Below, one piece after another: positions 1-62,837 of a stretch of DNA of 64,000 bases (its first letter is position 1; each line of letters begins with the position of its first letter). Location of the stretch: assembly GCA_949284685.1 (NCBI GenBank), contig CASDWE010000001.1, forward strand, positions 17,216 to 81,215, in the 5' to 3' direction. This DNA comes from an uncultured bacterium. Its GTDB lineage: Bacteria > Bacillota_I > Bacilli_A > RFN20 > CAG-826. The notes beneath the pieces were generated by a model. It was given only the letters and a program-made list of their open reading frames with translations, was not told the DNA's origin and did not search any database. The translations under genes and the position numbers were made by a program.

Positions 1-1143
1 ATCTTTTGGCATGCACCAACCATCAAACCATATATTAGCACCTGTTTTAGGAACAGAATAGCAAAGTCCAACCTCTGGTTCAATACCATGTTCATCATTA
101 TATTCGTCCGCTAAATCCATAGAGTAGACCGAATCTCCAGACCACGCCAAATTAACTCCAATAGTGCCGGTTACAATATCTTGTTTTCCTGAATCTACTT
201 CTAAACCAAAAATATTATTTTTTAATTCGATTAATTTCTCCTTAACTTTATCAATAGTGGTTTGATCACATCTATTTAAAACTTCAGTTATTTGTTTATT
301 ATATTCTTCGGCACTAATTAGATTTTTGTTGTAATCATCCAAAAGAGCTAATAATTCTTGTTTATAAGTTTCCGCTAATCCAACAAAATATGTATCACGC
401 ATAGAGTCTTTAATTGAAATACCACCATGATATTTTTCTGACCACAAGCTTGAATAATCAGCCATATCATTTATCATTTCATAAGGGTTAATATGCGAAT
501 ACAAATCATATTCTGGATTAAAAATAACCCCTAGAGTTCCCCACATATATCCAATAGCATATTCACCAAGATATTCTGTTTCGCCTGTTACATCATTAAT
601 AGCAGAAATGTTAGCTAGGGCTTCCACCATATAATTAGAACCATAATGCGTATAATTATTATTAAAATTATATTCAGGGACGCTTTCTAAAGCATCCATC
701 AACGGTTTAATTTTCACTAAAGAATTTTCACGCATTAATCTTTGAATACCATAATCACTAGGACAAATTAAATCATATGAGGCTTTGCCAGTTGCTAATT
801 CATTTAGCATTGTTTCGTTTGTATCTGTAGTTGAATAAACTACATTGACATTTGCAAATTGTGGGTAATTTTCTTTAACATAATTTTCAAATTGAGTAAT
901 TAAATCTGGTTCTTCATAGCCATTTTCAGGATCATATTGGTAAATATAATCTTCCCAATTTAATAAACGAAGAGTTTGACTACCCTCTGGATTTTTAAAA
1001 CCATCTATAAAATCTTTTAAATCTGCGTCGACATCATTTTCAGCATTTGCCTTAACAAATTGAGTGCTTCCAAAAATAACTGGATTTATAATAAAACCAA
1101 GCGAAATTGCAAGAAATGATGGTAAAACAAATATTTTTTTCAT
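1..1143 (-). CDS. potD: Spermidine/putrescine ABC transporter substrate-binding protein. The C-terminus is cut by the window edge.
   Basis: Hand translation of the minus strand from ATG at 1143 gives MKKIFVLPSFLAISLGF (signal peptide) and then a PotD-family periplasmic binding protein sequence, open to position 1. The ATG overlaps the potC stop (ATGA). This ORF is absent from the supplied track because it is truncated. Confidence 0.8.
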   Translation of the reverse strand, partial: MKKIFVLPSFLAISLGFIINPVIFGSTQFVKANAENDVDADLKDFIDGFKNPEGSQTLRLLNWEDYIYQYDPENGYEEPDLITQFENYVKENYPQFANVNVVYSTTDTNETMLNELATGKASYDLICPSDYGIQRLMRENSLVKIKPLMDALESVPEYNFNNNYTHYGSNYMVEALANISAINDVTGETEYLGEYAIGYMWGTLGVIFNPEYDLYSHINPYEMINDMADYSSLWSEKYHGGISIKDSMRDTYFVGLAETYKQELLALLDDYNKNLISAEEYNKQITEVLNRCDQTTIDKVKEKLIELKNNIFGLEVDSGKQDIVTGTIGVNLAWSGDSVYSMDLADEYNDEHGIEPEVGLCYSVPKTGANIWFDGWCMPKD

Positions 1144-1994
1144 AATTTAGACATCCTTTCTTGAGCGTGGGTCTTTTTATGCTTTCCTTGATAATAACGA
1201 TATAAAGAAACACAAACAACAGCTACCACTACCGCTAAAAATATAATTGTAGTTAATGCTCTCATTTCAGCAGGGACTGGACGTTTTTTAATAGTTGCTT
1301 GAATTAATGTGGAAAGAGTTTCAATATTAGCTTCCCCATTTAACAAACCAGTACCACGAGTAAAAGCAGTAATAATAAAATCGTCTAAAGATAAAGTTAT
1401 AGCTAATAAGAATCCACTTAAAATTCCAGGTAAAATTTCTGGAATTAAAACTTTTCTAATAGCTGTTTTTGGCGTTGCTCCTAAATCAAGAGCAGCCTCG
1501 TATAAACTTGGATCCATTTGTTGAAGTTTTGGCTTTACTGAAATATAAACAAAAGGCAAAGATAAAACAACGTGTCCAATTAATAATGTCCAAAAACTAA
1601 ATAGTTGAGTATGGAAAATATATTGCCCTAAAAATACAAATAAAATTGTTAAAGAAAGCGCCATAACAATTTCAGCATTAACAATTGGTATTTGTGTTAC
1701 TAAATCAACACTTTTTCTAAACCCTTTTTTAAGATAAAAAGCTCCAATTGCACCGCTTGTACCAAGCAAAGTTGAAACAAGAGCACTAGTAATTGCTATA
1801 ATTATCGTATTTCCTAAAGCAATCATGATTTCTTTATTTTGAAATAATGCAGGATACAAATCAAAAGTAAATCCATTCCATTGACCAACGTAAACAGCAT
1901 CAGTGAATGAAAAAGCCATCAAAATTAAAATAGGTAAATACATAATAATTAAGATTAGCCAAATATAAATTTGTCCAAATATCTTTTTTACCAT
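1140..1994 (-). CDS. potC: Spermidine/putrescine ABC transporter permease
   Basis: 284-aa polytopic membrane protein with a PotC-like BPD_transp_1 fold. It sits in the potABCD order, and its stop TGA overlaps the potD start. Confidence 0.85.
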   Translation of the reverse strand: MVKKIFGQIYIWLILIIMYLPILILMAFSFTDAVYVGQWNGFTFDLYPALFQNKEIMIALGNTIIIAITSALVSTLLGTSGAIGAFYLKKGFRKSVDLVTQIPIVNAEIVMALSLTILFVFLGQYIFHTQLFSFWTLLIGHVVLSLPFVYISVKPKLQQMDPSLYEAALDLGATPKTAIRKVLIPEILPGILSGFLLAITLSLDDFIITAFTRGTGLLNGEANIETLSTLIQATIKKRPVPAEMRALTTIIFLAVVVAVVCVSLYRYYQGKHKKTHAQERMSKL

Positions 1995-2830
1995 GTTGCA
2001 CCTCCTTTTGAGTCTTGATTTTCTTTATTACGCGTAAACAACATTGAGATTCCTACTATCACGAGCATAATTAACGCCATAAACGAACCGTCATTCCAAG
2101 CAGTATTAGAAAAATCTAGATAAATATAATTGCCTAATAAAGTGATTTTTCCCTCACTTAAAGTGTCGCTGATTACATAACTTGACATAGTTGGCATAAA
2201 TGTCATTGTAATAGCAGAAACAATTCCTGGCACAGATTGTGGCAAAATATTTTTTATAAAAACTTGGAAAGGATTTGCACCCAAATCAGATGCAGCTTCA
2301 ATTTGACTACGATCCAATTTAAGCATGGTCGTATATAGCGGTAATATAACAAATGGTAAATAGTTATAAGTCATGCCGATAAGAGTAGCTAAATAAGGAT
2401 AATTACCTCCATTGATATTCATCCATGTTAATAAGTCTCTAGTTGCACCAGTTCTTAAGACGAAATTTATCCACATCGGTGCAATAAATAAAGTTACCAA
2501 AACAGCGTTTTTATTGACCTTTTTATCAGCTAAAAAATACGCTAGTGGATAGCCAATAAGCAAACAAATCAGTGTAGTTTGCAACGCAATAAAAATCGAT
2601 ATGAATAAAACATTGATTTTAGTCCAAGTGGTAAAAAAACCGACTAATGCATCAAAAGAAAAAGCACCAGTAGCGTCGCTAAAAGCATAATAAACTATTA
2701 AAAGGATTGGTATAATGATAAAAAGAATAAGAAAAATGGAATATGGAATACATAAATATTTTCTTTGAAATAAAACAATGTGAGGTTTTTTATTTGCTAC
2801 CCTTTGTATAGCAACACTATTCGACTTCAT
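1988..2830 (-). CDS. potB: Spermidine/putrescine ABC transporter permease
   Basis: 280-aa polytopic permease. It overlaps potC by 7 nt and potA by 14 nt, which indicates translational coupling. Confidence 0.85.
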
Positions 2831-4376
2831 ATTTTGTAATGCTTCCTTTAAGAGTTAATTTAATGTTCTTTGGCAAAACATTTATTGAAACGATATCATT
2901 TTCGTTAAAGGCATACTCGCTATCGCAAACGAAATCTTCTTCTTCCTTTGTTCTGATTAGATATTGATAATGGTCACCTTTATAAACAATAGAAATAATT
3001 TCGCCAATATTTTCATCTTCATTTGGGTTATGATCTAAAATTTCAATATCAGATAATCCAATCTCTACAAAAACATCAGCGTCTTTTAAATCATATTTTT
3101 TATTATCTGGTCCTATTAGATATCCATTTTCATCAAGATGTGAATCGCTTAATAATTGAGTCAATTCGCAATCAAATGTGCAATCTGAGATAATAAGTTT
3201 ATTGTTTTTATCAATATAGGCATCCGTAAATACGTTTGTCGTTAATTCTTTTTTCATAATATGAATCTCATTTGGTCCAATATTGATTAAAACAACATCA
3301 CCGACATTGAATTCTTTTGTATCTTGAACAACAATTTCATTTTTGCCTTTTAAAACAACGTATTCAAAGTGGATTCCCTTAAAAACTTTAGAATCAACAA
3401 TACCAATAAGTTTTTCTTTGTATTTTTCTTTAATTTCAGCAGTAATATTGCCATCTTTTCCAATTCTTTTAAGTTCAACATCTTCAGGACGAATAACGAC
3501 ATCAACTTTTTCATTAACTGGAAAATCATCTAGACAATTAAAATTGGCACCTAGAAATCTAACGACTTTCTTTTTCATCATTGTAGCGTTATAAATATTG
3601 CTTTCGCCAATAAAATTAGCAACATAAGCATTATTTGGTTCGTTATAAATATCTTTAGGAGTGCCAACTTGTTGAATTTGTCCAGCTTTCATAACTACAA
3701 TAGTATCTGACATTGTAAGAGCTTCTTCTTGGTCGTGAGTAACATAGATGAAAGTTATACCAAGTTTATCATGCATAGCTTTCAATTCTAACTGCATTTC
3801 TTTTCTCATTTTTAAATCAAGAGCACCAAGAGGTTCATCTAACAACAAAATCTCAGGTTCATTAACAATAGCTCGAGCAATAGCGACACGTTGTTGTTGG
3901 CCACCACTTAAAGTTGAAATATCACGATCCTCTAATTCTTCTAGGTCAACAATCTTTAAAGCACGAGCAACTTTTTCATCAATAACTTTGCTTGATAAAT
4001 GTTTAAGTTTAGTTTTTGTAACACCTTTTTTTGTTGTATATGTAACAGGAACTTTCTTAAGTTTTAATCCAAAAGCAACATTATCATAAACATCCAAATG
4101 AGGAAATAACGCATAACGTTGGAAAACAGTATTAACCGGTCTTTTATAAGGTGGTAACTTCGTTATATCATTTCCATTTAGAAGTATACTGCCTTCGCTT
4201 GGAGTTTCAAATCCAGCAATCATACGGAGAGTAGTCGTTTTTCCACATCCAGAAGGACCTAGAAAAGTAACAAATTCACCTTTTGTAATATCGAGATTAA
4301 AATCATCGACAACAGTCACACCATCATAAACTTTGCTAACGTGTGATAGACTAATAATTTTATTATTCTCTTCCAT
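2817..4376 (-). CDS. potA: Spermidine/putrescine ABC transporter ATP-binding protein. It is a long, Mollicutes-style form with an insertion and a C-terminal TOBE-like region.
   Basis: Walker [10 protein letters not shown], signature [14 protein letters not shown] and Walker [13 protein letters not shown] are present. The protein is 519 aa, against about 370 aa for typical PotA, because of an insert between the Q-loop and the signature plus a C-terminal extension. Confidence 0.85.
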
Positions 4377-4632
4377 AAAAAATCTCCTTTACAAAGATAA
4401 AAAACCAGTTAGATTTTTTTATTAACTAACGAAAGAAATAATATAAATAATTTTCAAAAAAAACAAACATTTTTTTTAAAAAAGAAAATATAAATAGAAA
4501 AAAATAGATTTGAAAATGAAATTTATTAGTTTCAATCTAGCTTTTTTCCATAATTAAATTTTTCAAAAAAATTGTAAAAATAGTAACAAATTTTAATGGT
4601 TTTTATTGTATGTGTTTTTAAAAAAAATTATA

Positions 4633-5709
4633 ATGAGAAACATGAGAAAAAAATGTTTGTTTTTATTGCCAATACTTTGTGCAAGTTTGCTTGCTACATC
4701 ATGCAACAAAAGTGATGACAAAATTTCATTAACTTTTGGAACTTATATCGAAAATGCAATCAAGATAACATACGATCAGTTATCACCAAAAATGGCGGAT
4801 AATGAAAATATGATTGTTGTTGTTTATCCAGGTGATAATTCCACATGCGGTTGTTGGACAACATTTGAAGATGTTATCGATAATGTTGTTAACACTTATC
4901 ATTATCAAATATATAAAATATCTTATTCTCAGTTCATGTCTTATGGAAATCCGTGGAACTTCCCTATTTTTAATGACCGACCAAGTTTATGCTTTGTCGA
5001 AGAAGGTAAAATTAAAGAACGTATTGATTATGACACTAGCAATGTGCATCCGCTTTTTAAAAGCCGCGATGAATTATTAAAAGTAATTGAAGAATATTGC
5101 AATAAACCAAACTATTATTACATCGATGAACAATATTTAGATACAATTAAAAATGATGAAACCTTTCTTATAGGATATACATGGTCGAGCTGTCCTGATT
5201 GTTCATATTCTTTTCCAAATGTCTTATATCCATTCTCAAATGAAAATAATTTTAAAACCAAGATGTATATAATAGATTTAGAAGTTGAAGGCTTGCTTTT
5301 AGAAAACGGAATTAAAAATTCTGATAATGAAAGTTACAGAAAGTTTGTTAATGAACATTTTTTAAGCAATGTTGAAAACACAATTTTTGGTTACGATCGT
5401 GGTTTTGTTCCAACTTACCAATATTGGGAAAATGGGCAAATAAAAGATATGTGCGTATATTTTAATGATGAAGTAAGTAAAGTCAATGATAAATATCAAA
5501 TAACTAGAACATATTACACAAATGAAAGAATAAATAATTTACCATTTTTTGCTAATTTAGAAAACAAAAACGAATATGTTCTTGAAAATAAGGTTTTAAA
5601 TGAAAACGAACTAAATATTTATGAAAATTCATATTCTTGGAAACAAGAATACGCAAGTAAATATCACAATAAAATTTTAGAAACTTTTTTACAAACCTAC
5701 GCACTTTAA
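4633..5709 (+). CDS. Putative lipoprotein with two thioredoxin-like CxxC motifs; function unknown
   Basis: The likely start is ATG 4633 (MRNMRKKCLFLLPILCASLLATSC, lipobox LATSC). The track start at 4606 is a non-ATG codon. Two separated motifs, CGCW and CPDC, suggest tandem thioredoxin-fold modules. Confidence 0.45.
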   Translation: MRNMRKKCLFLLPILCASLLATSCNKSDDKISLTFGTYIENAIKITYDQLSPKMADNENMIVVVYPGDNSTCGCWTTFEDVIDNVVNTYHYQIYKISYSQFMSYGNPWNFPIFNDRPSLCFVEEGKIKERIDYDTSNVHPLFKSRDELLKVIEEYCNKPNYYYIDEQYLDTIKNDETFLIGYTWSSCPDCSYSFPNVLYPFSNENNFKTKMYIIDLEVEGLLLENGIKNSDNESYRKFVNEHFLSNVENTIFGYDRGFVPTYQYWENGQIKDMCVYFNDEVSKVNDKYQITRTYYTNERINNLPFFANLENKNEYVLENKVLNENELNIYENSYSWKQEYASKYHNKILETFLQTYAL

Positions 5710-6988: not shown

Positions 6989-7663
6989 CTAATTCTCCTT
7001 TAGATTGTCACAATCTAGAATAAGTATTTTGGATTTATTTGGTTCTACATACTGTTGAATATCAATCATTCTGTCTTTAATAAATGTTATTTCATTTTTA
7101 GCAATGTTAATAAATTTAAAGATTTGGTTATTGTCAAAATAACCTGTATTATTGTAATAATAATGCATTGGTATTAATATACGGGGATTAATTTTCTTAA
7201 AAATATCATAGGCTTGTTTATAATTGATAGTAAAAAATCCATTAATTGGTATTAAAACTAAATCGGCATCTTTTAATTGTTCTACCATTTCGTTAGTCAA
7301 TTCACATCCAATATCCCCAAAATGAACTATTTTATAATTAGACATATAAACAATATGTATTTTGTTCATGCCACGTAATTTTCCACCAGCATTATCATGT
7401 GGAATGTTAATTATTTGAACATCTAAATCTTCGACTTTATTTAATAATTGAATAACACCTTCACGATTGTTATGATCATCATGCTCGTGGCTTATAAATA
7501 AGTAATTAGTGTTTACTCCGTTTGGAAAAGTTAAATTGTCAACACTTCCATTTTTATATGGATCAAAACAAACTTTACAATGATCATCATCTAATAAAAA
7601 ACAAGCATGTCCAATCCATTTTAAAAAGAGATGATTATTCATCGATTCTGCCCCCATTATCAA
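6989..7663 (-). CDS. MBL-fold metallo-hydrolase
   Basis: 224 aa with an HxHxDH-type motif (SHEHDDHNN) typical of metallo-beta-lactamase-fold hydrolases. Confidence 0.6.
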   Translation of the reverse strand: MIMGAESMNNHLFLKWIGHACFLLDDDHCKVCFDPYKNGSVDNLTFPNGVNTNYLFISHEHDDHNNREGVIQLLNKVEDLDVQIINIPHDNAGGKLRGMNKIHIVYMSNYKIVHFGDIGCELTNEMVEQLKDADLVLIPINGFFTINYKQAYDIFKKINPRILIPMHYYYNNTGYFDNNQIFKFINIAKNEITFIKDRMIDIQQYVEPNKSKILILDCDNLKEN

Positions 7664-8681
7664 AATTATTTTTTAAAAATAGTTTTTTGAAAAATTGAAA
7701 AACTTTGTATATAAAAAAGGAAAAAATAGGTGATATAAAAGATATAGTAAAAACAACTAACGAATAAATATAATCAGCAAACTCAAATTGCTTAAAATCA
7801 ATAAAGATATCAAAAGAATGCAAAATAAAATCAATCAAATAGCCAATACTAAAACCGACTAAAAAACAACAAATATCAATTAAAACAATGTAAATTTCGT
7901 GTTTTTTTAAAAAATCATGTTTTTTTAAAAAAGCAAAATTTGAATATAAAATATAGAAATTTAAAAATAAAAACAATAAGGAAATGATTAATAAAAAAGA
8001 GCCAATTAAAGCGTTATCATTTCGAATAAAATGAATACATGGAAAACTACACACACCAAGAAAAATCGAAAATAATACATAAAAAATAAAGTTAGAATAT
8101 ATATTTTTGATTATAAATTTAAAAGTCATTCCATTTTTTAAATTAGTATTTTTGATATTTTTTTCATCGACAATTTCAGATTCTTTTTTTGCAAATGTTT
8201 TATCTAAAACAACAACATTCAAACTCGAATTGCAATGACTAATTATTTGCTCAAAAAAATCAAAATTATTTCCATAATTTAAATCTATTGTTATATAAAG
8301 AACGTTGTTTTGCACTAATAAATTAATAATATCATGGAATTTTTCATTTAAAACTTTATCGATTTTTTTTATTTTTAACAAATTTTTTTTAAGTTTAGTT
8401 ATTTTGTTGTTATTTAATTTTAATTCCAAATCAAAAAAAGCATCTAAACTAACACCATTAAAATTGATTTTTAAATCGTAAAGACAATTTTCCTTATCTG
8501 CATAAATATTCAATGACTTATCGTCAATTAAAATTTGTCCATCGACTATCCCATTATTTTTAAAATTTAAAATATTAAAGAAAATTTTGTCTTCCTTTTT
8601 AATATTAATGACATTAGATTCAAATTTTTTATTGAATACATTATCAATGCCTGCTAGTTTTAAATTTTTGATTTCAATCAT
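7635..8681 (-). CDS. Hypothetical membrane protein with an N-terminal soluble domain and a C-terminal polytopic domain
   Basis: 348 aa. The N-terminal ~190 aa are hydrophilic with weak resemblance to an ABC-ATPase N-terminus but no Walker A. The C-terminal half has about 4 hydrophobic helices. Confidence 0.4.
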   Translation of the reverse strand: MIEIKNLKLAGIDNVFNKKFESNVINIKKEDKIFFNILNFKNNGIVDGQILIDDKSLNIYADKENCLYDLKINFNGVSLDAFFDLELKLNNNKITKLKKNLLKIKKIDKVLNEKFHDIINLLVQNNVLYITIDLNYGNNFDFFEQIISHCNSSLNVVVLDKTFAKKESEIVDEKNIKNTNLKNGMTFKFIIKNIYSNFIFYVLFSIFLGVCSFPCIHFIRNDNALIGSFLLIISLLFLFLNFYILYSNFAFLKKHDFLKKHEIYIVLIDICCFLVGFSIGYLIDFILHSFDIFIDFKQFEFADYIYSLVVFTISFISPIFSFFIYKVFQFFKKLFLKNNFDNGGRIDE

Positions 8682-8713: not shown

Positions 8714-11008
8714 TTACTTTTTAAAATAATTTTTAATACCTGTTAAATATTTTCCATTCAATATATCCACTATTAAATGGCCTAAACGCATATCAAATGT
8801 TTTACTATTAGCGTAGTTTATCACGCCTCTTAATGGTGTATTCATCATTTGATTAAACATCATTTCCTTATTTGGATCATCATCTTTAAATCTTTTATTG
8901 AACTCCTTGGCGAATATTTTATTTATAAACCTTCCCATTCGGGTTGATTTGAAATCATTTAATGATGAATTCATATCAAAATTTGGTTTCTTGGAATTAT
9001 CAAAAGAAATTTCTGAATCAATTTGTAAATCAATATTGTATTTGTACTTTGTAGAACCTTCTTTAATCTCGTAATCAAAATAATAATAAATATTGTTAAT
9101 TGATTCACCAAGATAAATTTTATATTTCCCTTTCTTTACACTATAAAATTTAATTTCATCATCATAAGAAGAAAACATCTCGTCGTTTAACATGATTTTT
9201 ACATCTATGCTTTTGTTTGCACCAACAAAAATTTTCTTAAAATATTTTAATTGTTTAAAACTGTTTACATCATCTTTTATGTATAGTTGCACTAACGTTT
9301 TTCCGTTAATCTTAGACAAATTTTTAATTTTAAAAGACACCTGATTTCCATCGCATTTAAAATTTGAATAATTAAATTTACTATATGTCAATCCATGGCC
9401 AAAACAAAATCTAACATCTTTATTAAAACCATCATAATAGCGGTATCCAACATACAAGCCTTCTTTGTAAGGAATATTTTTATTTTTAGATGGAAAATCA
9501 TTTCCTAAATATGTTGATGCTGTATCAAGTGGCCAAGTTTCTGAAAGGTGTCCACTTGGGTTGACATCACCATAAAGAATATCCACTAACGCACTAGAAC
9601 CTTTACATCCGCATAAGTATGGTAAGACAATAGCGTTGACTTTATCATAAAATGGTAATTCAACAGGAGAACCTGCTAATATGACACAAACAATATTTTT
9701 ATTAAATTCATATAATTTATCAATTAAATCTGGCATGAAGGAAGGAAGGCTCATAGAAATTTTATCTTCTCCTTCTGTTTCTAAATCATCAAACAAACCA
9801 AGAAAAACCACAATCTTGTTAGTGTTTTTAGCAACTTCAATAGCTTGTCTAATTAAATTTTCGTTCGTGGATTGAGAACTAATATCATATCCATCCGCAT
9901 ATTCATATGGGTATTTATTATTATCCATAACATTTAAAATTTGCTCTAAATAAATAGGATTAATTTTGCTTGAACCGCCACCTTGAACATGAATATTTTT
10001 TGCAAATTGCCCTATTATTCCAATTTTTTCATTTTTATTTAAAGGTAAAATTTCTTTTTCATTTTTTGCTAAAACAATAGACTCACTAGCAATTTTATAA
10101 GCATTATTGATGTTTTCTTGCAAATTGTATTGGAACTTGCTTTTATCAATACTTTGATGTTTAATTATAAAATCAAAAGTTGGCTGTATAGCTTTATCAA
10201 TTTCATAATCGGTTATGTTTTTATTTCGATATGCTTTATTTATGGCATCTAAAACATATTTGTTGTTTCCTGGCATAACTAAATTTAAACCATTTTTAAA
10301 TGAATCGACAGGATCATTTAAGGCACCCCAATCTGTGACCACCATCCCTTTAAAATCGAATTTATTTCTTAAAACATCCTCTAATAAAAATTTATTTTCA
10401 CCACAATAAATGCCATTAACACGATTATACGCTGACATAACCGCAGCGACGTCGCTATTTTTAATTGTTAAATAAAATGGGAATAAATATAAATCATAAA
10501 GAGTATGTAAATCCGCATCACTACTATAAACAAAGCGATTTGTTTCTTGAGAATTTAAGGCATAATGTTTTAAACAACAATCAACATTTTCACTTTTTGC
10601 TCCATTTACGTAACTATATCCTAAAACACCATTTAAGTATGGATCTTCACTAAAATATTCAAAATTTCGTCCGCCCAAAGGATGGCGTTTGATATTTAAT
10701 CCAGGACCCAATATCAAATCAACATCATTATTAAAAGCATCATTAGCGATACTTTTACCAAATAAATAAGCGATATTTTCATCAAAACTGCAACTAACTA
10801 ATGCAGCAGTCGGATATACTATGCTTTTAATTACGCTGACATTGCCATTTTCAATAATTTCTTTTCTAATTCCATGTGGCCCATCGCTCATCCAAACACT
10901 TTTAATTTTTAAACGATCAATAGGACGTGTTTGCCAAACATTTAGACCATCAAAAAGCAAAATCTTTTCTTCTGATGATAATTTTTCAAAAATATCTTTA
11001 TTTTTCAT
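8714..11008 (-). CDS. Glycoside hydrolase family 3 beta-glucosidase (BglX-like), cytoplasmic
   Basis: 764 aa with a GH3 N-terminal domain carrying the VTDWGA motif and a C-terminal GH3 domain. There is no signal peptide. Confidence 0.8.
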   Translation of the reverse strand: MKNKDIFEKLSSEEKILLFDGLNVWQTRPIDRLKIKSVWMSDGPHGIRKEIIENGNVSVIKSIVYPTAALVSCSFDENIAYLFGKSIANDAFNNDVDLILGPGLNIKRHPLGGRNFEYFSEDPYLNGVLGYSYVNGAKSENVDCCLKHYALNSQETNRFVYSSDADLHTLYDLYLFPFYLTIKNSDVAAVMSAYNRVNGIYCGENKFLLEDVLRNKFDFKGMVVTDWGALNDPVDSFKNGLNLVMPGNNKYVLDAINKAYRNKNITDYEIDKAIQPTFDFIIKHQSIDKSKFQYNLQENINNAYKIASESIVLAKNEKEILPLNKNEKIGIIGQFAKNIHVQGGGSSKINPIYLEQILNVMDNNKYPYEYADGYDISSQSTNENLIRQAIEVAKNTNKIVVFLGLFDDLETEGEDKISMSLPSFMPDLIDKLYEFNKNIVCVILAGSPVELPFYDKVNAIVLPYLCGCKGSSALVDILYGDVNPSGHLSETWPLDTASTYLGNDFPSKNKNIPYKEGLYVGYRYYDGFNKDVRFCFGHGLTYSKFNYSNFKCDGNQVSFKIKNLSKINGKTLVQLYIKDDVNSFKQLKYFKKIFVGANKSIDVKIMLNDEMFSSYDDEIKFYSVKKGKYKIYLGESINNIYYYFDYEIKEGSTKYKYNIDLQIDSEISFDNSKKPNFDMNSSLNDFKSTRMGRFINKIFAKEFNKRFKDDDPNKEMMFNQMMNTPLRGVINYANSKTFDMRLGHLIVDILNGKYLTGIKNYFKK

Positions 11009-11729
11009 CTTTTTTTACATCTTTAAAATTTATTACTGCTTGAAATACTACTTTTTCATCCACCGTACCTGTTACAGAAGAAATATTATTTGAAAAAGTT
11101 TCATATAATTTCAAATTTTGTTTTTCTTTCACTTCTAACATATAGTCGATTCTAAAATTTGTAATTTCATGTGTTAAATAAAAATCAGAATCATGCAAAT
11201 CCATAATATAATCGATATATCGGGTGTTATTTAAATGTCTATTTAAATCGCAATCAGTATATGAAATTGTAACTTCTTTTTTAAGGTCTCCTAAAGGAAT
11301 ATCAATTTTTTTTGGCAATGGAAGTTCGCCATCATGACTTTCAAATTCTAAATTAAATTCGCCTTCTTTTAATGTTGCTATTTTTCTTGTTTTATCATCT
11401 AAAAGGGCCCATGTAGTAACCATACGAATTATAGGCTGATTATTTTTATCTACAACTAAAAAATGTCTAGGATAAATAAAACGTAACGTAGGAGAAGGAT
11501 AAGTATAAAAAGTAATGGGTTCTAAATAATCGGGCATGCGATAAATTTTTACGTCGGCTCGTGTTACAACCCAAATTAATCCTTTTGATTCGTTAAAAGA
11601 GTTTCCTTTCCCAATTTCTTCAACAGCGGCAACAGATACATCTTGAAACATTCTAAAAAACGAAGAGATTCTTAATTTCTTTAATTCATCTACTTCAGTT
11701 GATTTAACAAATAGTTCCTCCTTGTGCAT
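10998..11729 (-). CDS. Acyl-ACP thioesterase (tandem hotdog)
   Basis: 243 aa whose layout is consistent with acyl-ACP thioesterase family proteins. It overlaps the GH3 gene by 11 nt. Confidence 0.55.
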   Translation of the reverse strand: MHKEELFVKSTEVDELKKLRISSFFRMFQDVSVAAVEEIGKGNSFNESKGLIWVVTRADVKIYRMPDYLEPITFYTYPSPTLRFIYPRHFLVVDKNNQPIIRMVTTWALLDDKTRKIATLKEGEFNLEFESHDGELPLPKKIDIPLGDLKKEVTISYTDCDLNRHLNNTRYIDYIMDLHDSDFYLTHEITNFRIDYMLEVKEKQNLKLYETFSNNISSVTGTVDEKVVFQAVINFKDVKKDEK

Positions 11730-11748: not shown

Positions 11749-12615
11749 TTATTTTTTAATACTCAATTTTAGAATATCACCATATAAATCCACGCGTCTA
11801 TCTCTAAATATTCCCCAAGAATAACGATGTTTATTAACTTCATCTAAATCAAATTCCTCTATAATGTAACCTTCATCTACACTATTTAATTGTTTTTTAA
11901 CATTTCCAAATTCGTCACAAATAAAAGATGAGCCAAAAAATGTCATTGATGAATTTCCGATTTTTTCTTCACCAATTCTATTTGATGCAACAACTGGTAT
12001 TATATTGGCGGCAGCATGGCCTATCATGACATTTTGCCAATGATTTTTGCTATCTTTATCTAAAACTGGTTCACTTCCAATCGCGGTTGGATAAAACAAT
12101 ATTTCAGCACCTTGAAGTGTCATGATTCTTGCACATTCGCTAAACCATTGGTCCCAGCATATTGCAACACCAATTTTTCCATATTTAGTATTAAAAATCT
12201 TAAAACCAGTATCCCCCGGGGTAAAATAAAACTTTTCCTCATAACATTGGCCAGTAGGGATATGCGATTTGCGATATAACCCAAGAATCTTTCCATCAGC
12301 ATCAATTACCACTAAAGAATTAAAGTAGCAGTTATTATCTTTTTCAAAAAAAGAAATCGGTAAAACAACACGATATTTTTTTGCAATTTGTTGATAATGT
12401 TTAATTAATTTACTATTCTTAACATCTTCTGCTAAAGAAAAGAAATCATAATTTTCAATTTGACAAAAATATATGTTAGAAAATAGTTCTTGTAATAAAA
12501 CTATGTTAGCACCATCTTGACACGCTACATGAATCATTTCATCAGCTTTTTCAATATTTTGCTTTATATTACTACTACAAGCAAATTGAACTGCACAAAC
12601 TTTTATTTTTCGCAT
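11749..12615 (-). CDS. aguB: N-carbamoylputrescine amidohydrolase (CN-hydrolase family)
   Basis: 288 aa that matches the AguB consensus closely: KVCAVQFACS, LQELF, YRKSHIP, AICWDQWF (catalytic Cys) and ILFYPTAIG. Confidence 0.85.
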   Translation of the reverse strand: MRKIKVCAVQFACSSNIKQNIEKADEMIHVACQDGANIVLLQELFSNIYFCQIENYDFFSLAEDVKNSKLIKHYQQIAKKYRVVLPISFFEKDNNCYFNSLVVIDADGKILGLYRKSHIPTGQCYEEKFYFTPGDTGFKIFNTKYGKIGVAICWDQWFSECARIMTLQGAEILFYPTAIGSEPVLDKDSKNHWQNVMIGHAAANIIPVVASNRIGEEKIGNSSMTFFGSSFICDEFGNVKKQLNSVDEGYIIEEFDLDEVNKHRYSWGIFRDRRVDLYGDILKLSIKK

Positions 12616-12618
12616 ACA

Positions 12619-15228
12619 TTAATTTCCTTTCTTTGGAATTTGCATGGTAATACAATGAATATTACCACCACCTATTAATATATTAACAGTTTTTATAGGA
12701 ATTATTGTTTTATTAGGAAAAATATTTTTAAATTGTTTTACAACTAATTCATCCTGTTTAACATCAAATTGTGGAAGAACAACAAAATCCTTACCTTGAT
12801 AAAAATTAATGTAACTTCCTTGCAAAATTTCATTAAATAAGCGAGGTTTTGCATTGTATTTATCTTTTTTTATGGCATTTGCTTGCTTTTTAGAAATGCG
12901 AATTTTGCTTGGCAATTTGACCTTAATTATGTTGTATGGATTACCATCAATATCCCTAGCGTTACTTAAAATCTTATATGCTTTTTGACAAACTAAATAT
13001 TGTTTTTTGTCGTTAGCGTTAGCCCACGCTAATAAGATAGTATGTTGATCTTTAAAAGCTATAAAATTATCAATATGCTCATCTGTTTCATCATTTAATA
13101 TACCATGTGGTAACCAAATTATTTGTGAAACATTTAAATTTATTTTTAAAATTTCTTCGATTTCGTTTTTGTTGAATTGAGGATTTCTACCTTTTGATAA
13201 CAAGCATGTTTCTGTCACAAACAAAGTTTTATTCCCATCATATGCGATAGAACCACCTTCTAAAACAAAATTATTAATGTAATAAGAATCGATGTTTAAT
13301 TTTTTTGACAAAACCTTGCCGAGATTATCATCATCTTGATAGTTGGAATATAGACCATTATATTCTCCGCCCCAAGCATTAAAACGGAAATCAACACTTC
13401 TAATTTGCCCTTGAGAATTTTTTAAGAAAATTAACGTATTATCTCTAGCCCAAGCATCATTATATTTTATTTTTAAAACACTAACACTAGTAAAATTCTT
13501 CACTAACGGCAAATATTTATTATAAACACTAGGGTCGATGCCAACGTAAACATGTTCATATTTAGAAATGCTTTTTATTACATTTAAAAATTCTTTTAAA
13601 GCATCTTTCCCTTTATTTGTCCAAACATCTTTACGATAAGGTAATAAAATAATACACCCATCATGTTCATCGCCTTCAAACGGTAAATAAAACTCATCAC
13701 CGCGAGGGGTCGTTTTTCTTTTAACAACATAATCCTGTAATTTTTTTTGATAATATGGAAATCTCTTCCATTTATTTTCATCTATAATATCAACTTGATA
13801 CCCATCATTATGATTTGATAATAATCGACATCCTTTTTTTGAACCATCTTTAATTTGATTAATGATATCCTTTGTAAAAACTTCACCAGGCAAAATTATA
13901 GGTATTCCTGGAGGGTAAATCATAATTGATTCCTTGCATATATGATTAAGTGCATTATCAAGTGAAACAGTTTGTGTTGGCGCAAAATAAGCTGTACGTG
14001 GCCTAGTTATCATATAACCATATTCAAAATTAAAATTATGAACCGGATAACTTAAATTTTTATGGAAATGGCGTTTTGATATATCTTTTAATGCTTTAAC
14101 CAAATTATCGATATGAGTTTTAGTGTTTCCTAATGCTAAAATACATAAAATAACATATGTCTCAGCAAGTTCTATTTGAATATGATAATCATTTTTTAAT
14201 AATCGATATACTTCATAACCATTTAAGTCTAAACGATCTAATTCAATTAAAAGTTTTGTCTTATCATAATTGAAACATCCGCGTGATTTAAAATAATCTT
14301 TACCACGCACTATAAAACCATCAATTTGATTAATTTTCTCAAAAGCATATTCGCTTAATTTAATTATGTTTTCAACAGATTCAGGACCATTTTCTTCCAT
14401 CCACGCTCGTGCAGCGTCTAAACTAGCAAGCAATAATGATGATGGGGACGTGGTGTTTAGTAAATTGAGTGTTTCTCTTATTTTGATATTATTAACCTTG
14501 TTTCCTTTGGTAAGCAATACGCTAGATTGCGTTAAACTGCCTCCGGTTTTATGAAATGAAACAGCGCTTATATCAGCGTTTGCTTCCATCGCATTAATAG
14601 GATTAGAATCACTAAAATAATAATGTGCACCATGAGCTTCATCAACAATGACTAACATGTTATGTTCATGAGCCATTTCAACAAGTTTTTTTAAATCCAA
14701 AATTACTCCAAAATAAGTTGGATTTATAACCACTACCGCTTTTGCACTTGGATAACGTATCATCGCCTTTTTATAATCTTGCAATGTTGGTTGATTTGCT
14801 ATTTCAATGTTTGCATCAATATCAGGATTAATATAAATTGGTATAGCACCACTTAAAACAAGAGAATTTGTAATAGATTTATGGACATTTCTTGGCAATA
14901 TGATTTTATCATTTGGACGGCAAATACTCAAAATAGCAGCTTGCAAACCACTAGTAGTTCCATTAATAAGAAAAAAAGAATTATCTGCGTGGCAAGCTTT
15001 TGCCATTAACTCTTCGCTTTGTAAAATAACGCCATCAGGATGTGCTAAATTATCTAAACCAACTGGTGCATTTACATCACATTTATATACTATTTGACCC
15101 ACTAAATCGGTCATTTTATTTTTAATATTTCCCATATGATGACCAGGTACATCAAAAGGAGAAATACCTTCGTTTACATAATTTTTAAGTGCGTCTACAA
15201 ATGGCGTCTCCGCCTTAACTTTTCCCAT
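12619..15228 (-). CDS. Bifunctional fusion of a PLP-dependent Orn/Lys/Arg-decarboxylase-family arginine decarboxylase (N-terminal) with agmatine deiminase (C-terminal)
   Basis: 869 aa. Residues 1 to ~495 show an OKR decarboxylase major domain with the PLP-lysine motif SFHKTGGS. From ~498 onward (TPRGDEFYLPFEGDEHDGCIILLPYRKDVWTNKGKDA...) the sequence aligns to an agmatine deiminase N-terminus and continues as a PAD_porph-type deiminase. The stop lies 3 nt before the aguB start. Confidence 0.75.
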   Translation of the reverse strand: MGKVKAETPFVDALKNYVNEGISPFDVPGHHMGNIKNKMTDLVGQIVYKCDVNAPVGLDNLAHPDGVILQSEELMAKACHADNSFFLINGTTSGLQAAILSICRPNDKIILPRNVHKSITNSLVLSGAIPIYINPDIDANIEIANQPTLQDYKKAMIRYPSAKAVVVINPTYFGVILDLKKLVEMAHEHNMLVIVDEAHGAHYYFSDSNPINAMEANADISAVSFHKTGGSLTQSSVLLTKGNKVNNIKIRETLNLLNTTSPSSLLLASLDAARAWMEENGPESVENIIKLSEYAFEKINQIDGFIVRGKDYFKSRGCFNYDKTKLLIELDRLDLNGYEVYRLLKNDYHIQIELAETYVILCILALGNTKTHIDNLVKALKDISKRHFHKNLSYPVHNFNFEYGYMITRPRTAYFAPTQTVSLDNALNHICKESIMIYPPGIPIILPGEVFTKDIINQIKDGSKKGCRLLSNHNDGYQVDIIDENKWKRFPYYQKKLQDYVVKRKTTPRGDEFYLPFEGDEHDGCIILLPYRKDVWTNKGKDALKEFLNVIKSISKYEHVYVGIDPSVYNKYLPLVKNFTSVSVLKIKYNDAWARDNTLIFLKNSQGQIRSVDFRFNAWGGEYNGLYSNYQDDDNLGKVLSKKLNIDSYYINNFVLEGGSIAYDGNKTLFVTETCLLSKGRNPQFNKNEIEEILKINLNVSQIIWLPHGILNDETDEHIDNFIAFKDQHTILLAWANANDKKQYLVCQKAYKILSNARDIDGNPYNIIKVKLPSKIRISKKQANAIKKDKYNAKPRLFNEILQGSYINFYQGKDFVVLPQFDVKQDELVVKQFKNIFPNKTIIPIKTVNILIGGGNIHCITMQIPKKGN

Positions 15229-15272
15229 GCTTTAAATTATAATAATAATTTATGCATATACAAGAAAATTTT

Positions 15273-15296
15273 AAAAGCGTGGTCGCCCACGCTTTT
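15273..15296. terminator. GC-stem hairpin (aaaagcgtggtcgcccacgctttt). It is a likely rho-independent terminator for the convergent minus-strand lipoprotein gene and insulates the downstream speA/aguA promoter.
   Basis: An 8-bp perfect stem (gcgtggtc/gaccacgc-type) is flanked by A/T runs on both strands. Confidence 0.55.
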
Positions 15297-15331
15297 AGAA
15301 AAGAGAAACAATAATGTTAATTTTAACTTTA

Positions 15332-16531
15332 TTATCCAACATATGCTGTCCAGTTACCAGGAACAACATTATCAGGATTATTATCATACCAAGATGCAGT
15401 GCTATTAACAATTGAATACATATTCATGCCAGAAGGAATATCTGCCAAACTTAAATCAGCCGTTCTAGCATTCCAATCTGCTAAAATACCATTATTATAT
15501 CCAGCACGCACGAACTGAATATTAGTGTATAAACTAACATCTAATCTAATACCCCAGAAATTATGACTTGTATCTGAATCATAGCGCAAATGAGTCATAA
15601 CAACACCTGGCCAAGCACCATTTATAACATCATTTGGTCCATAAGCATAAATTGAGGTTGATACATTATAGCCTTGCCACCAAGAAGCATCTTCAAAATA
15701 TAAAACAAGATATTCTGGAGCAACATTGCCAGATCTAACTGCTAAAGCATTAATTAATTCACCTAATGTCGTTTGAAGAGGTTTTTCTCCAACAGTTTCG
15801 CCTGCATCAACAACGGTATCCATATCAATATCACCAAGATTTTGGCTGATAAAGATTTTTTCTAATTGTTTCCAAGCACCATAACCATTATGGACATTTG
15901 GTGAACAAGAATCGATAAATTCATGTGATAAAACATGAGCAAGTTGTTCGCTAGTTAATGCTGGAACATAACCAAAATTAATATTACGAACAGCTGTTTC
16001 ATCTTCGCCTTTTTCAATCCAAAGTGCGTTATATTCGCTGTCCGTTCCTAAAAATGTTTTTGCGGTTTGTTTTGCGTTATAGCCATCCTGCCATTCACCA
16101 GCAAAATTTTTGATTTGAATATAATTATATTCATTTTTCAAATCGAAATAGTAAAGACCATAGCCATATCCATCATCACGGCTTCCATCGCTACTGCGAC
16201 CAATTAAATGCATTTTTGGAGCATCATTATAGCCACCTTCAATTGTGCTAATTGGTTCATCGTCAAGATTATCATTTTCCTCGGCATAAATCCAAAGGTT
16301 TCCATCCACTGAATCATGAGACCATGTTTCGTCATTTAAGACGACATAAATTCTCTTTAAACCAGTTTCTTCAACTACCCCACGATGATTATCGTCTGGT
16401 AAAAGAGAGGTTTTGGGCGTAAACGAGCATGCTGCTGCAACTATACCGACGATAGCAACACCGCATACCGCACCAAAAATCGCTAATTTCTTTTTCATAT
16501 GCAATTTTCCTAAACGTTTGATTAAAATCAA
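15332..16531 (-). CDS. Lipoprotein of unknown function with atypical composition
   Basis: Lipoprotein signal KKKLAIFGAVCGVAIVGIVAAAC. Start is either TTG 16531, which lies 4 nt after an AGGAG, or ATG 16498. The protein is rich in Gly/Ala/Asp/Trp/Tyr, unlike its Lys/Ile/Asn-rich neighbours. Confidence 0.5.
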   Translation of the reverse strand: MILIKRLGKLHMKKKLAIFGAVCGVAIVGIVAAACSFTPKTSLLPDDNHRGVVEETGLKRIYVVLNDETWSHDSVDGNLWIYAEENDNLDDEPISTIEGGYNDAPKMHLIGRSSDGSRDDGYGYGLYYFDLKNEYNYIQIKNFAGEWQDGYNAKQTAKTFLGTDSEYNALWIEKGEDETAVRNINFGYVPALTSEQLAHVLSHEFIDSCSPNVHNGYGAWKQLEKIFISQNLGDIDMDTVVDAGETVGEKPLQTTLGELINALAVRSGNVAPEYLVLYFEDASWWQGYNVSTSIYAYGPNDVINGAWPGVVMTHLRYDSDTSHNFWGIRLDVSLYTNIQFVRAGYNNGILADWNARTADLSLADIPSGMNMYSIVNSTASWYDNNPDNVVPGNWTAYVG

Positions 16532-16654: not shown

Positions 16655-17626
16655 ATGAAAAAAAGTAAAAAAAGTTTAATTTATAAAATTCCATTAATAA
16701 TCATTGCTAGCATACTTGGTCTAGTGAGTGTGGTTTCTGGTGGTCTTAATATTTTAAAATATGGCATTTATTCAGAATTTTATGCGGTTAAGGAAGATAT
16801 TGCAACACTCCCGGGATTAAATGACAATTTTGTTCCACAAGGAATATGTGTAAATGAAGAAAAAGGCATATATATGATATCTGGTTATATGTCGGATCAC
16901 ACAAATAGTAGAATTTATATCACAAACAAGGAAAACGAATCACGCTATGTTTCTCTTATTAAAAATGGTGAAGATTTTTTAGGACACGTTGGTGGAATAG
17001 CTACAACTGGAAATGATGTATTTATTGCAAACAATGAAAGAATTTATATAGTACAATTAAAAGATTTATTAAACGCTGATACTACGATAGATATTGGAGA
17101 TGGCATTGAAGTAAACAATGCTGCAAGTTTTGTCTTTACCAACGATGATTATTTATATGTTGGAGAATTTCATGATGGCGGAGCTTATGTAATTGAAAAT
17201 CACGAATTTGAAACAGGCGATGGAACATATTATGCGATTTGTTCAAAATATAATATTAGCGATTTTACCACGTCTACTTCATCTACTCCAAAGCCAGAAA
17301 TAATATACTCTATAAGAAACAAAGTACAAGGGTTTGCTGTTAAAAATAATGGTGATATCATTCTTTCAACTTCTTATGGCTTAACTGATTCCATTTTTTA
17401 TTATTACAATAGTAATCATATAGAACAATCAGATGAAACATATGATGGTGTGCCTGTATATTTTCTTGATGAATATGATAAGACTTTAAAAGGTTCTGCT
17501 ATGAGTGAAGACTTGGATTATGATGAAATAAATAATCAAATAATTACATTGACAGAAAGTGCATGCAATAAATATGTATTTGGCAAATTCTTTTTTGCAA
17601 CAACATTTTTTGCACTCAATTGGTAA
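16655..17626 (+). CDS. Hypothetical N-terminally anchored protein, possibly beta-propeller-like
   Basis: 323 aa with a single N-terminal TM/signal anchor followed by a repetitive beta-rich sequence. An extended -10 TGGTATAAT sits at 16634-16642, only ~12 nt before the ATG, giving a very short leader. Confidence 0.4.
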   Translation: MKKSKKSLIYKIPLIIIASILGLVSVVSGGLNILKYGIYSEFYAVKEDIATLPGLNDNFVPQGICVNEEKGIYMISGYMSDHTNSRIYITNKENESRYVSLIKNGEDFLGHVGGIATTGNDVFIANNERIYIVQLKDLLNADTTIDIGDGIEVNNAASFVFTNDDYLYVGEFHDGGAYVIENHEFETGDGTYYAICSKYNISDFTTSTSSTPKPEIIYSIRNKVQGFAVKNNGDIILSTSYGLTDSIFYYYNSNHIEQSDETYDGVPVYFLDEYDKTLKGSAMSEDLDYDEINNQIITLTESACNKYVFGKFFFATTFFALNW

Positions 17627-47638: not shown

Positions 47639-48292
47639 TTATGTCAATTGACATAAATCTTCGTCAATAATTATGTTTTTATCAATACTTTGTTTACTAT
47701 TTCCTAAATTTATAACGCTTAAATGTAAAAAACTTAATTCTGTTTTTAATTTTTCAATCTCTTGTTCGTTTAAATAATCAAACAAATTAAGTGTAAAAAT
47801 TAGATTTATTTTCCCAAATTCTTTAACTATCTTAATATATGTTAAGAAGTTTTCTAAAAAATTATCTTCGTTTTCGTAATATTCTAAGTCTATTGATGAA
47901 AATAACGTTTTAAAATCCAATAAACTTTCGTATTGCAATTTTATATTAGAATTAATTGATAAATCTAGCATTAATTGCCCCACTAATTCGTTAATTTCAG
48001 CTAACTTTTGTCTATATTCATCATTTATATTTTCTTTTTCAATTTGTGAATATAAATTGCTAATTTGTTTTTTATTATTAATTTGAAGATTAAGAACATT
48101 TTCAATAAAAACGATGTGTTTTGAAAAATCTAGTAAATTTTTTTCATATAAAAACATAAAGTCTTCGTCTAAATGTCTTAATGACAAAATAAATTTATAT
48201 AAATACGAAGGATTTAATATTTGAATATTATAAATCTCCCCGTTTCCAATTATAAATTCATAGTCAACATTTTTAATTTTTAAAGTCATCAT
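47639..48292 (-). CDS. csn2: Csn2 (short form), the type II-A signature adaptation protein
   Basis: 217 aa located directly downstream of cas2. N-terminal MTLKIKNVDYEFIIGNGEIYNIQILNPSY resembles short Csn2. Confidence 0.8.
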   Translation of the reverse strand: MMTLKIKNVDYEFIIGNGEIYNIQILNPSYLYKFILSLRHLDEDFMFLYEKNLLDFSKHIVFIENVLNLQINNKKQISNLYSQIEKENINDEYRQKLAEINELVGQLMLDLSINSNIKLQYESLLDFKTLFSSIDLEYYENEDNFLENFLTYIKIVKEFGKINLIFTLNLFDYLNEQEIEKLKTELSFLHLSVINLGNSKQSIDKNIIIDEDLCQLT

Positions 48293-48615
48293 AATTCAAT
48301 ATTTCTCTCGTCACTATTAATTACTTCTGTATTTATTTCTCCTAATATAATATTGATATCTCCAAATTGTTTTTCAGTAATGGTTAAAACCGCAACAGAT
48401 CCTTCTTTTGGAGAGATTTTTTTAACTTTTTCAATTGTGGAATTTGCAATTCTTTGATCTAAACATAATTTTAGATAAACAGATTTTTGAAACATATAAA
48501 ACCCAAGACTTTTTATATCTTTTACAAATTTAGAATAATTACGTCTTTGCACTTTTTTCTCAACTGGCAAATCAAAAAATAATAATAATCTCATATATCT
48601 ATAATTCATAATCAA
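48289..48615 (-). CDS. cas2: Cas2
   Basis: 108 aa (MRLLLFFDLPVEKKVQRRNYSKFVKDIKSLGFYMFQKSVY). It overlaps cas1 by 17 nt and csn2 by 4 nt. Confidence 0.85.
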   Translation of the reverse strand: MIMNYRYMRLLLFFDLPVEKKVQRRNYSKFVKDIKSLGFYMFQKSVYLKLCLDQRIANSTIEKVKKISPKEGSVAVLTITEKQFGDINIILGEINTEVINSDERNIEL

Positions 48616-49462: not shown

Positions 49463-49467
49463 TAAAA

Positions 49468-61507: not shown

Positions 61508-61548
61508 AAATTTTCCTCCTTTACTTTATTTTATCAAATATGAAATAT

Positions 61549-62448: not shown

Positions 62449-62837
62449 TATTTTCTATCTCCGCTAGTTGGCAATGTCGAAATTTCAACAACATTTGATT
62501 TAGGCGAACTAATAACATAGTCTTCTTTATATTCAGCATAAGCTTGAACATAAAATAAACCTCTTCCTCTAAAATTATTAAAACTATAGGTGTTAGTAAT
62601 TACTTTTGCGTATTTTTCATCGTTTGAAGCATTATAAATAATATAATAATCCGCTAATTTGACTTCCTCCCAAGAAATAGTCAAACTATTCGTTTCTGAT
62701 ATTTCTACATTAGGAGTAGATAAACTAAATCGCAAAACATCACTTACAGAACAAGAAGTCAAAAACATTAATATTGGTAAGGTCATTAAGATTTTTTTAA
62801 ATGTTTTCATTATTTTTTCCTCCTTATGCATACTCAA
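62448..62837 (-). CDS. Small lipoprotein, FN3/Ig-like
   Basis: Probable start MKTFKKILMTLPILMFLTSC (ATG ~62810) with lipobox LTSC, then a ~100-aa beta-sandwich-like domain. Confidence 0.45.
   Translation of the reverse strand: MSMHKEEKIMKTFKKILMTLPILMFLTSCSVSDVLRFSLSTPNVEISETNSLTISWEEVKLADYYIIYNASNDEKYAKVITNTYSFNNFRGRGLFYVQAYAEYKEDYVISSPKSNVVEISTLPTSGDRK

Follow-up and report, generated by a model that had tools for sequence, protein, structure and literature searches.

The window analysed here, a 64-kb stretch (64,000 nucleotides) of contig CASDWE010000001.1 from an uncultured bacterium of the Bacilli_A, carries on its reverse strand a single open reading frame (ORF; 12619..15228) that joins a pyridoxal 5'-phosphate (PLP)-dependent decarboxylase to a complete agmatine deiminase (AgDI), with the gene for N-carbamoylputrescine amidase (aguB) directly downstream. 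The product is probably a bifunctional enzyme, an ancestral-form arginine decarboxylase (aADC) fused to AguA, which is encoded in one operon with aguB for the conversion of arginine to putrescine. In the proposed pathway, the SpeA-type half of the fusion protein would decarboxylate L-arginine to agmatine and CO2, the AgDI half would convert agmatine to N-carbamoylputrescine and NH3, and AguB would release putrescine, CO2 and NH3. The fusion gene and aguB would be co-transcribed, giving a hydrolytic route that yields no ATP and requires only two polypeptides.

Two enzymes in one reading frame

The fusion ORF encodes 869 aa, starts with ATG, stops with TAA and contains no internal break. The domain order is decarboxylase (residues 8-485; 13774..15207), helical linker (residues 486-505; 13714..13773) and AgDI (residues 506-866; 12631..13713), all on the reverse strand. 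One continuous frame runs through the domain junction, where neither an in-frame stop nor a change of frame is required. Genetic code 11 fits the window, in which 46 long ORFs end in TAA (36), TAG (8) or TGA (2); the tryptophan codons of the fusion gene are seven TGG and no TGA. Pfam assigns the protein OKR_DC_1 (residues 8-328, 4.5e-69), OKR_DC_1_C (417-454, 2e-7) and PAD_porph (515-865, 1.7e-92). Together with the NCBIfam matches, these domains bear out an earlier, sequence-only reading of this DNA, which had proposed that a decarboxylase and a full AgDI share one ORF and that a domain search should show it. The SFHKTGGS lysine motif named in that reading lies at residues 224-231 (K227), and the junction that it placed near residue 498 (nt 13737) is mid-linker. 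No second copy of either domain was found elsewhere in the window.

The decarboxylase half is of the ancestral form of the Orn/Lys/Arg decarboxylases, with the aspartate aminotransferase (AAT) fold. It comprises the major and the C-terminal OKR_DC_1 domains (PF01276 and PF03711) and has neither the N-terminal REC wing nor the insertions of the extended form, whose members match it only from their own residue ~130 onwards. Identity to Bacillus SpeA is 40% over 455 aa (E=3e-128), and the alignment to the 490-aa SpeA covers residues 7-459 with few gaps; the B. subtilis-group reference matched "arginine decarboxylase [Bacillus subtilis BEST7613]" at 100%. The PLP-binding lysine K227 (codon 14548..14550) and the DEAHG motif (D196-G200, including D196 and H199) are invariant in alignments of 16 and of 67 fused proteins. 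Both line up with SpeA and with the structure 2x3l, the lysine falling on the HK motif of each. We take 2x3l (SAR0482) to be the Staphylococcus aureus yaaO homologue. A YaaO-type paralogue, as involved in elongation factor P (EF-P) modification and unrelated to polyamines, was considered and rejected, since the gene downstream is aguB and not tmk and the match to 2x3l (1.8e-39) is much weaker than that to SpeA. S. aureus has one yaaO-type homologue (Li et al., 2021, PMC8503589).

The AgDI half is matched by PF04371 with 310.5 bits (cut-off 25) over profile positions 2-321 of 321, and by TIGR03380 over positions 1-357 of 357 with 361 bits (equivalog cut-off 381.8). The solved enzymes 2JER and 2EWO align with it end to end (~1e-66), 2JER being covered over residues 8-365. 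In this alignment D596, E657, E714, H718, D720 and C859 correspond to D96, E157, E214, H218, D220 and C357 of 2JER, the Enterococcus faecalis enzyme. C859 (codon 12652..12654) lies in the motif GGGNIHC at the position of the catalytic nucleophile. In the E. faecalis AgDI, C357 is the nucleophile, H218 the histidine, D96 and D220 the guanidinium-binding aspartates and E157 the glutamate of the active site. The AgDI catalytic residues show no variation among 16 homologues and at least 90% conservation among 67; a single protein, P0121, deviates. The sequence-only reading had raised the doubt that the C-terminal half might turn out to be something other than an AgDI; the domain is complete and its catalytic residues are intact.

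The deviating protein, P0121, is an observation apart. It is an 863-aa product encoded on one 12.5 kb contig of an ENA metagenome, in which the decarboxylase and the linker (up to ...TVPRNDEYYL) persist, while NDAWARD, LEGGS and the later AgDI motifs have been lost from the C-terminal half. Judging from these motifs, the second domain may have either decayed or been replaced, reminiscent of the dead arginase-like domain of a Fusobacterium fusion protein.

An AlphaFold2 model of the fusion protein, computed from the 67-sequence alignment, has a mean predicted local distance difference test (pLDDT) of 89.2 and a predicted template-modelling score (pTM) of 0.87. Such a high pTM for a two-domain chain suggests a defined, rigid arrangement of both halves. 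Foldseek superimposes the AgDI half of the model on 2JER, 1VKP and 6NIB with target-normalised TM scores of 0.93-0.96 and root-mean-square deviations of 1.6-2.1 Å over ~365 columns. The model accordingly predicts for this half the pentein (alpha/beta propeller) fold, superimposable on that of solved AgDIs. In the same search, no PDB chain spans both halves.

The third enzyme of the route is encoded by aguB (11749..12615, reverse strand, 288 aa). It scores 430.6 bits against TIGR03381, above the equivalog cut-off of 410.25, and matches the Medicago N-carbamoylputrescine amidohydrolase (NCPAH) 5H8I at 6.4e-105, with QELF, YRKSHIP and AICWDQWF identical in the alignment. These motifs presumably hold the Glu-Lys-Cys triad of the nitrilase superfamily. 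As the sequence-only reading had it, the aguB ATG lies 3 nt past the stop codon of the fusion gene (...TAA tgt ATG). An AAGGA motif (12625-12629) within the 3' end of the fusion gene precedes this ATG by 9 nt, and aguB is probably translationally coupled to the fusion gene. Going by their residues, both halves of the fusion and AguB are catalytically intact, and both halves look functional.

At the other end of the unit, a TATAAT box (15236..15241, reverse strand) lies 7 nt upstream of the fusion ATG, with no Shine-Dalgarno sequence. A -10-like hexamer (TATAAT, TACAAT, GATAAT or TAGAAT) is found 6-8 nt before the ATG, again with no Shine-Dalgarno sequence, in the window and in six (L003, L013, L014, L029, L033 and L056) of the eight other fused loci with an identifiable start. 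This recurrence suggests that the fusion gene has a conserved leaderless mRNA. The 5' boundary of the unit is marked by a terminator-like hairpin of the upstream gene (15272..15297, reverse strand; an 11-bp stem with 5 GC pairs and a T-rich tail).

Fused and split forms of the operon

How widespread is the fusion? Three contigs of an ENA assembly encode the identical protein, and an independent metagenome-assembled genome (MAG; L002) has a copy with 99% identity. In a search of 5.8 billion proteins, all of the 120 top clusters are full-length (860-890 aa), contain both domains and are 53-99% identical to the window protein, so that among the top matches listed there are at least 120 clusters of fused proteins. 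These homologues go by the name of "agmatine deiminase" in NCBI MAGs (labelled Erysipelotrichia, Bacilli, Bacillales or Firmicutes) or "lysine decarboxylase" at JGI. A search of 1.84 billion representatives from clustering at 50% identity leaves essentially one fused protein (P0013), accompanied by a junction-spanning fragment (P0122) and the aberrant singleton P0121; all other matches are stand-alone decarboxylases of ~480-500 aa or deiminases of ~370 aa. The fusion is therefore one compact family.

A locus scan of one genome per GTDB species, in which loci were retrieved through AgDI motifs, gave 56 loci with a single ORF across both domains, in ~55 species-level genomes. The gene directly downstream is aguB in 53 of the 56, and two others lie on short contigs that end first. 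The sequence-only reading had proposed that databases be searched for this fused architecture, and the same fusion is found in these ~55 species genomes as well as in the at least 120 protein clusters. The carriers are all uncultured low-GC Bacilli from rumen, horse, chicken and human gut bins, one of them represented by a complete 1.06-Mb chromosome (OX437086.1). The family is confined to uncultured, partly genome-reduced, low-GC Bacilli of the gut and rumen.

The linker (KWKRFPYYQKKLQDYVVKRK, residues 486-505) is predicted to be an ordered helix, placed by AlphaFold2 at residues 491-503 with a pLDDT of ~92-95. Its length and the continuous frame through it are constant in 64 of 66 aligned homologues, and W487 and D499 are invariant. 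It is homologous to the C-terminal tail of the decarboxylase in a set of split relatives, where decarboxylase, aguA and aguB are separate ORFs. This set comprises 13 loci (L057-L064, L066, L067 and L069-L071) labelled Acholeplasmatales, Anaeroplasmataceae or Mollicutes, and includes the cultured type strain Anaeroplasma bactoclasticum ATCC 27112 (L067). Their decarboxylases are 52-57% and their AgDIs 43-50% identical to the corresponding halves of the window protein, and aguB again lies directly downstream in all 13.

In the split loci, the decarboxylase ends at its own stop codon, and aguA lies in another frame, starting between 4 and ~30 nt upstream of that stop with its own GGAGG/GAGG Shine-Dalgarno sequence and ATG. 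In most of them the decarboxylase tail (WDLYEKHKKDLEEYYESIK) aligns residue for residue with the fused linker; L066 and L071 have no tail. The signals that start aguA sit inside the codons of this tail, as in TTGGAGGAATATTATG, which reads L-E-E-Y-Y in the decarboxylase frame, so that the same DNA encodes a helix and the ribosome-binding site of the downstream gene. Programmed frameshifting was rejected for the split genomes, as every aguA has its own Shine-Dalgarno sequence and ATG. By the same signals, the split loci are real coupled genes and not errors.

Relationships were examined in Kimura-distance neighbour-joining trees with 200 bootstraps (not maximum likelihood). In the decarboxylase tree, with 2x3l as outgroup, fused and split forms make up one clade (98.5% bootstrap), within which 54 fused sequences stand together (76%) and two (L028 and L030) group with the 13 split forms (98%). 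In the AgDI tree all 56 fused sequences group together, with the split forms nearest. The topologies allow one fusion followed by fission, or two fusions, as possible histories. Because the closest relatives keep a speA-aguA-aguB operon with overlapping frames, fusing the genes is optional in evolution and not required for function.

More distant homologues show further arrangements. Seven Lachnospiraceae/Roseburia loci have the order decarboxylase, SpeE, a saccharopine-dehydrogenase-like protein (carboxyspermidine dehydrogenase, CASDH), Orn_DAP_Arg_deC (carboxyspermidine decarboxylase, CASDC), aguA and aguB, and one locus (L081) has the order aguA, aguB, decarboxylase. A side observation concerns these polyamine clusters (L075-L080, Lachnospiraceae/Roseburia, and L081), in which SpeE and a CASDH/CASDC-like pair separate the decarboxylase from aguA-aguB. 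The presence of SpeE and CASDH/CASDC in one operon implies either two aminopropylation routes or a route of the carboxyaminopropylagmatine type. Another is provided by Bacillales bacterium UBA6879 (L072, 5498-8079), in which a decarboxylase that falls outside the clade of fused and split forms precedes two ORFs that hold the pieces of a broken AgDI (query residues 513-636 and 705-865), possibly a pseudogene or an assembly problem.

Substrate and purpose of the pathway

AgDIs serve in more than one kind of pathway. When the 64-kb window was surveyed with Pfam, its ORFs of 120 aa or more (minus a few small or overlapping ones) included no carbamate kinase, no putrescine or ornithine carbamoyltransferase and no amino-acid antiporter. 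As these are missing from the window, the AgDI would feed the hydrolytic AguB step and not an ATP-yielding system. The sequence-only reading had noted their absence nearby, which extends to the whole window, and had concluded that the genes look biosynthetic and not part of the catabolic energy pathway. The second half of that conclusion stands, there being no ATP-yielding module in the window; the first is left weaker, since a hydrolytic AguA/AguB pair alone is no proof of biosynthesis. Its claim of a complete arginine-to-putrescine route agrees with the domains, their order and the intact residues, with arginine as the substrate suggested by gene context.

That context makes it probable that the decarboxylase half acts on arginine. 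The assignment is drawn from its persistent linkage to aguA-aguB in many forms: fused, overlapping, clustered (in Lachnospiraceae) and reordered (in L081). In addition, it is difficult to see why an ornithine decarboxylase (ODC) should be joined covalently, through a structured linker, to an intact AgDI.

Several observations weigh against an arginine-to-putrescine pathway that supplies putrescine. The decarboxylase half is almost equally identical to SpeA (40%) and to the ancestral-form ornithine decarboxylase (aODC) of a Fusobacterium fusion with an arginase-like domain (P0148; 39%). The neighbour-joining tree places these two references together, away from the fused clade, and because they cluster elsewhere the phylogeny does not discriminate arginine decarboxylase (ADC) from ODC. 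Gene context has been a poor guide in other species: C. botulinum has an ODC even though it encodes agmatine iminohydrolase (AIH) and NCPAH, and in L. ferrooxidans the enzyme encoded beside speD/speE is a lysine decarboxylase (LDC) (Li et al., 2021, PMC8503589). Counts of co-occurrence are ascertainment-biased, given that loci were retrieved by AgDI motifs, and the AgDI half falls slightly short of its NCBIfam equivalog cut-off, at 361 against 381.8 bits. Homologues of speE or CASDH/CASDC were found neither in the window nor in the flanks of any fused or split locus, and speD neither in the window nor beside any fused locus. Finally, a PotABCD-type spermidine/putrescine ATP-binding cassette (ABC) importer (1-4376, reverse strand) lies ~7 kb from the fusion operon. 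It consists of PotA (2817-4376), which passes TIGR01187 (362.9 versus 355.6), two permeases (1988-2830 and 1140-1994) and a PotD-like lipoprotein ORF that begins near 1143 and continues beyond the first position of the window; these genes match best the Mycoplasma equivalogs MMSYN1_0195/0196/0197.

What, then, is the operon for? Its purpose may be putrescine supply, nitrogen release or pH control. With the chemistry as proposed, the operon could serve arginine catabolism, consuming protons, releasing two NH3 for acid tolerance or as nitrogen, and excreting putrescine. The absence of aminopropylation genes and the presence of a polyamine importer would both suit such a role, at least one carrier is genome-reduced (the 1.06-Mb chromosome), and Pseudomonas uses aguAB catabolically. 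The flanks of the fused loci contain unrelated housekeeping genes (HAD hydrolase, GH2, M24 peptidase, MntP, a patatin-like protein and a pseudouridine synthase). Catabolism is nevertheless rather unlikely, given that the window holds neither an antiporter nor an ATP-yielding carbamate kinase module and that the out-group homologues reside in spermidine-biosynthesis clusters. We infer putrescine supply as the purpose of the operon, and the fusion may bring a kinetic advantage.

The identity of the substrate can be questioned separately. The decarboxylase half might be an ODC, an LDC or a bifunctional enzyme, while AgDI and AguB process agmatine from the gut, in which case the fusion would join two alternative entries to putrescine. 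The ancestral-form decarboxylase family has switched repeatedly among ADC, ODC and LDC activities, with context misleading before (PMC8503589), and no published specificity-determining residues for these enzymes were found in the literature. The near-equal identities and the "lysine decarboxylase" label of the JGI homologues point the same way. Against this, the linkage to aguA-aguB is tight across the fused, overlapping, clustered and reordered arrangements, the fixed-length structured linker would be left with no obvious selective reason, and the agmatine-pathway domain of the one characterised aODC fusion of this kind is a decayed one, whereas the AgDI here is intact. An activity other than ADC is improbable on this balance.

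Less probable still is that one half is a pseudo-enzyme retained for structure or regulation, as in the Fusobacterium aODC fusion with its inactive arginase-like domain. This precedent comes from the same enzyme family, and the metagenomic homologue P0121 has a decayed AgDI-like half; however, in homologues as distant as ~53% identity, all residues for catalysis and substrate binding in the two halves are either invariant or conserved to at least 90%, and the AgDI half equals the decarboxylase half in mean column conservation (0.72 against 0.67-0.75). A sequencing or assembly artefact, a 1-nt indel error merging speA and aguA, was a concern of the sequence-only reading and would fit the metagenomic origin of the window and the two overlapping ORFs in different frames at the junction of close relatives, but it is effectively refuted by the identical copies on three contigs and the 99% identical one in an independent MAG, by a frame and linker length common to ~55 species genomes and to at least 120 clusters obtained in independent projects, and by the absence from the fused genes of the internal Shine-Dalgarno sequence and ATG of the split genomes.

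Neighbouring genes, known systems and significance

Close behind aguB on the same strand lie genes for an acyl-ACP thioesterase (10998-11729), with its own GGAG Shine-Dalgarno sequence, and for a GH3 glycosidase (8714-11008). They are probably unrelated passengers that share the direction of transcription (8714-11729), since they are not conserved beside the fusion in other genomes. Further away, the window carries a type II-A CRISPR-Cas locus (47639-53718, reverse strand) with Cas9 (1416 aa, 49468-53718), Cas1 (48599-49462) and Csn2 (47639-48292). Several sizeable ORFs have no Pfam match (16655-17626 and 4606-5709 on the forward strand; 7635-8681 and 59696-63603 on the reverse strand), among them the 399-aa gene immediately upstream of the fusion (15332-16531, reverse strand).

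Each half of the fusion protein has well-known relatives. B. subtilis SpeA (Li et al., 2021, PMC8503589) shares with the decarboxylase half the fold, the OKR_DC_1 and OKR_DC_1_C domains, a length of ~485 aa, the lack of a REC wing and the PLP-lysine motif. SpeA, however, stands alone and feeds the agmatinase SpeB, whereas in the fusion a C-terminal helix follows and an AgDI is attached covalently; arginine specificity has been demonstrated for SpeA and is suggested by context for the fusion. The AguA/AIH enzymes (E. faecalis 2JER, S. mutans 2EWO, Arabidopsis 1VKP/3H7K and Medicago 6NIB) align end to end with the second half and share its Cys/His/Asp/Asp/Glu set and fold. Unlike the fusion, all of the solved AgDI/AIH chains retrieved are single-domain proteins. 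The E. faecalis enzyme moreover belongs to the ATP-yielding aguBDAC pathway, where it works alongside a carbamoyltransferase, a carbamate kinase and an antiporter; the window of the fusion has no gene for any of these three.

As for arrangements of domains and genes, one parallel in form is the 783-aa aODC-arginase/agmatinase-like fusion of Fusobacterium nucleatum (PMC8503589), to which the decarboxylase half is similar as given above. In that taxonomically unrelated organism an ODC is joined to an arginase-fold partner for which no activity is predicted, whereas here the partner is a PAD_porph-fold AgDI with its residues intact. Identity with this type of fusion was rejected, the C-terminal domain being PAD_porph and not an arginase with degenerate metal ligands. 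The split operon of Acholeplasmatales/Anaeroplasmataceae has orthologous genes in the same order, with aguB downstream and the helical tail on most decarboxylases; it differs in encoding two polypeptides, with aguA in another frame behind its own Shine-Dalgarno sequence and ATG. Genome mining has also brought to light an aguA-aguB fusion in a Diapherotrites MAG and SpeD-SpeD fusions (PMC10407285). These likewise join enzymes of the same pathway, in the case of aguA-aguB for consecutive steps, but their partners are other pairs than ADC and AgDI.

The literature searched in full text (including PMC8503589, PMC10407285, PMC13625781 and PMC9251427) yielded no account of an ADC-AgDI fusion, though a prior mention is possible. 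The fusion is a real new domain architecture, built from known enzymes and apparently hitherto undescribed. The sequence-only reading, too, had called it no standard described arrangement; it is nonetheless not rare in sequence databases, under the names of single enzymes. The parts and the chemistry are textbook, and the fusion of pathway neighbours is common in evolution; the finding is useful to specialists but not startling.

What does the fusion of two consecutive enzymes buy? Orthologous fused and split versions, the latter in a culturable strain, provide a clean system in which to ask. One tentative idea, which we regard as doubtful, is a true bienzyme machine, in which the fixed-length helix would lock the active sites in a defined geometry, probably within a higher oligomer, and agmatine would be channelled and never released. 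The helix retained by the split decarboxylases would then be a docking element for a non-covalent complex. Channelling of agmatine by the fusion is speculation; if true, the fused and split forms would be a natural pair for studying the evolution of metabolic channelling, and the polyamine metabolism of uncultured gut Bacilli with reduced genomes would gain its first functional anchor point.

[quoted passage not shown] For one large uncharacterised clade of these enzymes, genomes offer no stronger ("Rosetta-stone") pointer than the covalent attachment of an intact AgDI. The whole conversion of arginine to putrescine would need no more than two gene products, and the bacteria that carry them may contribute to luminal putrescine.

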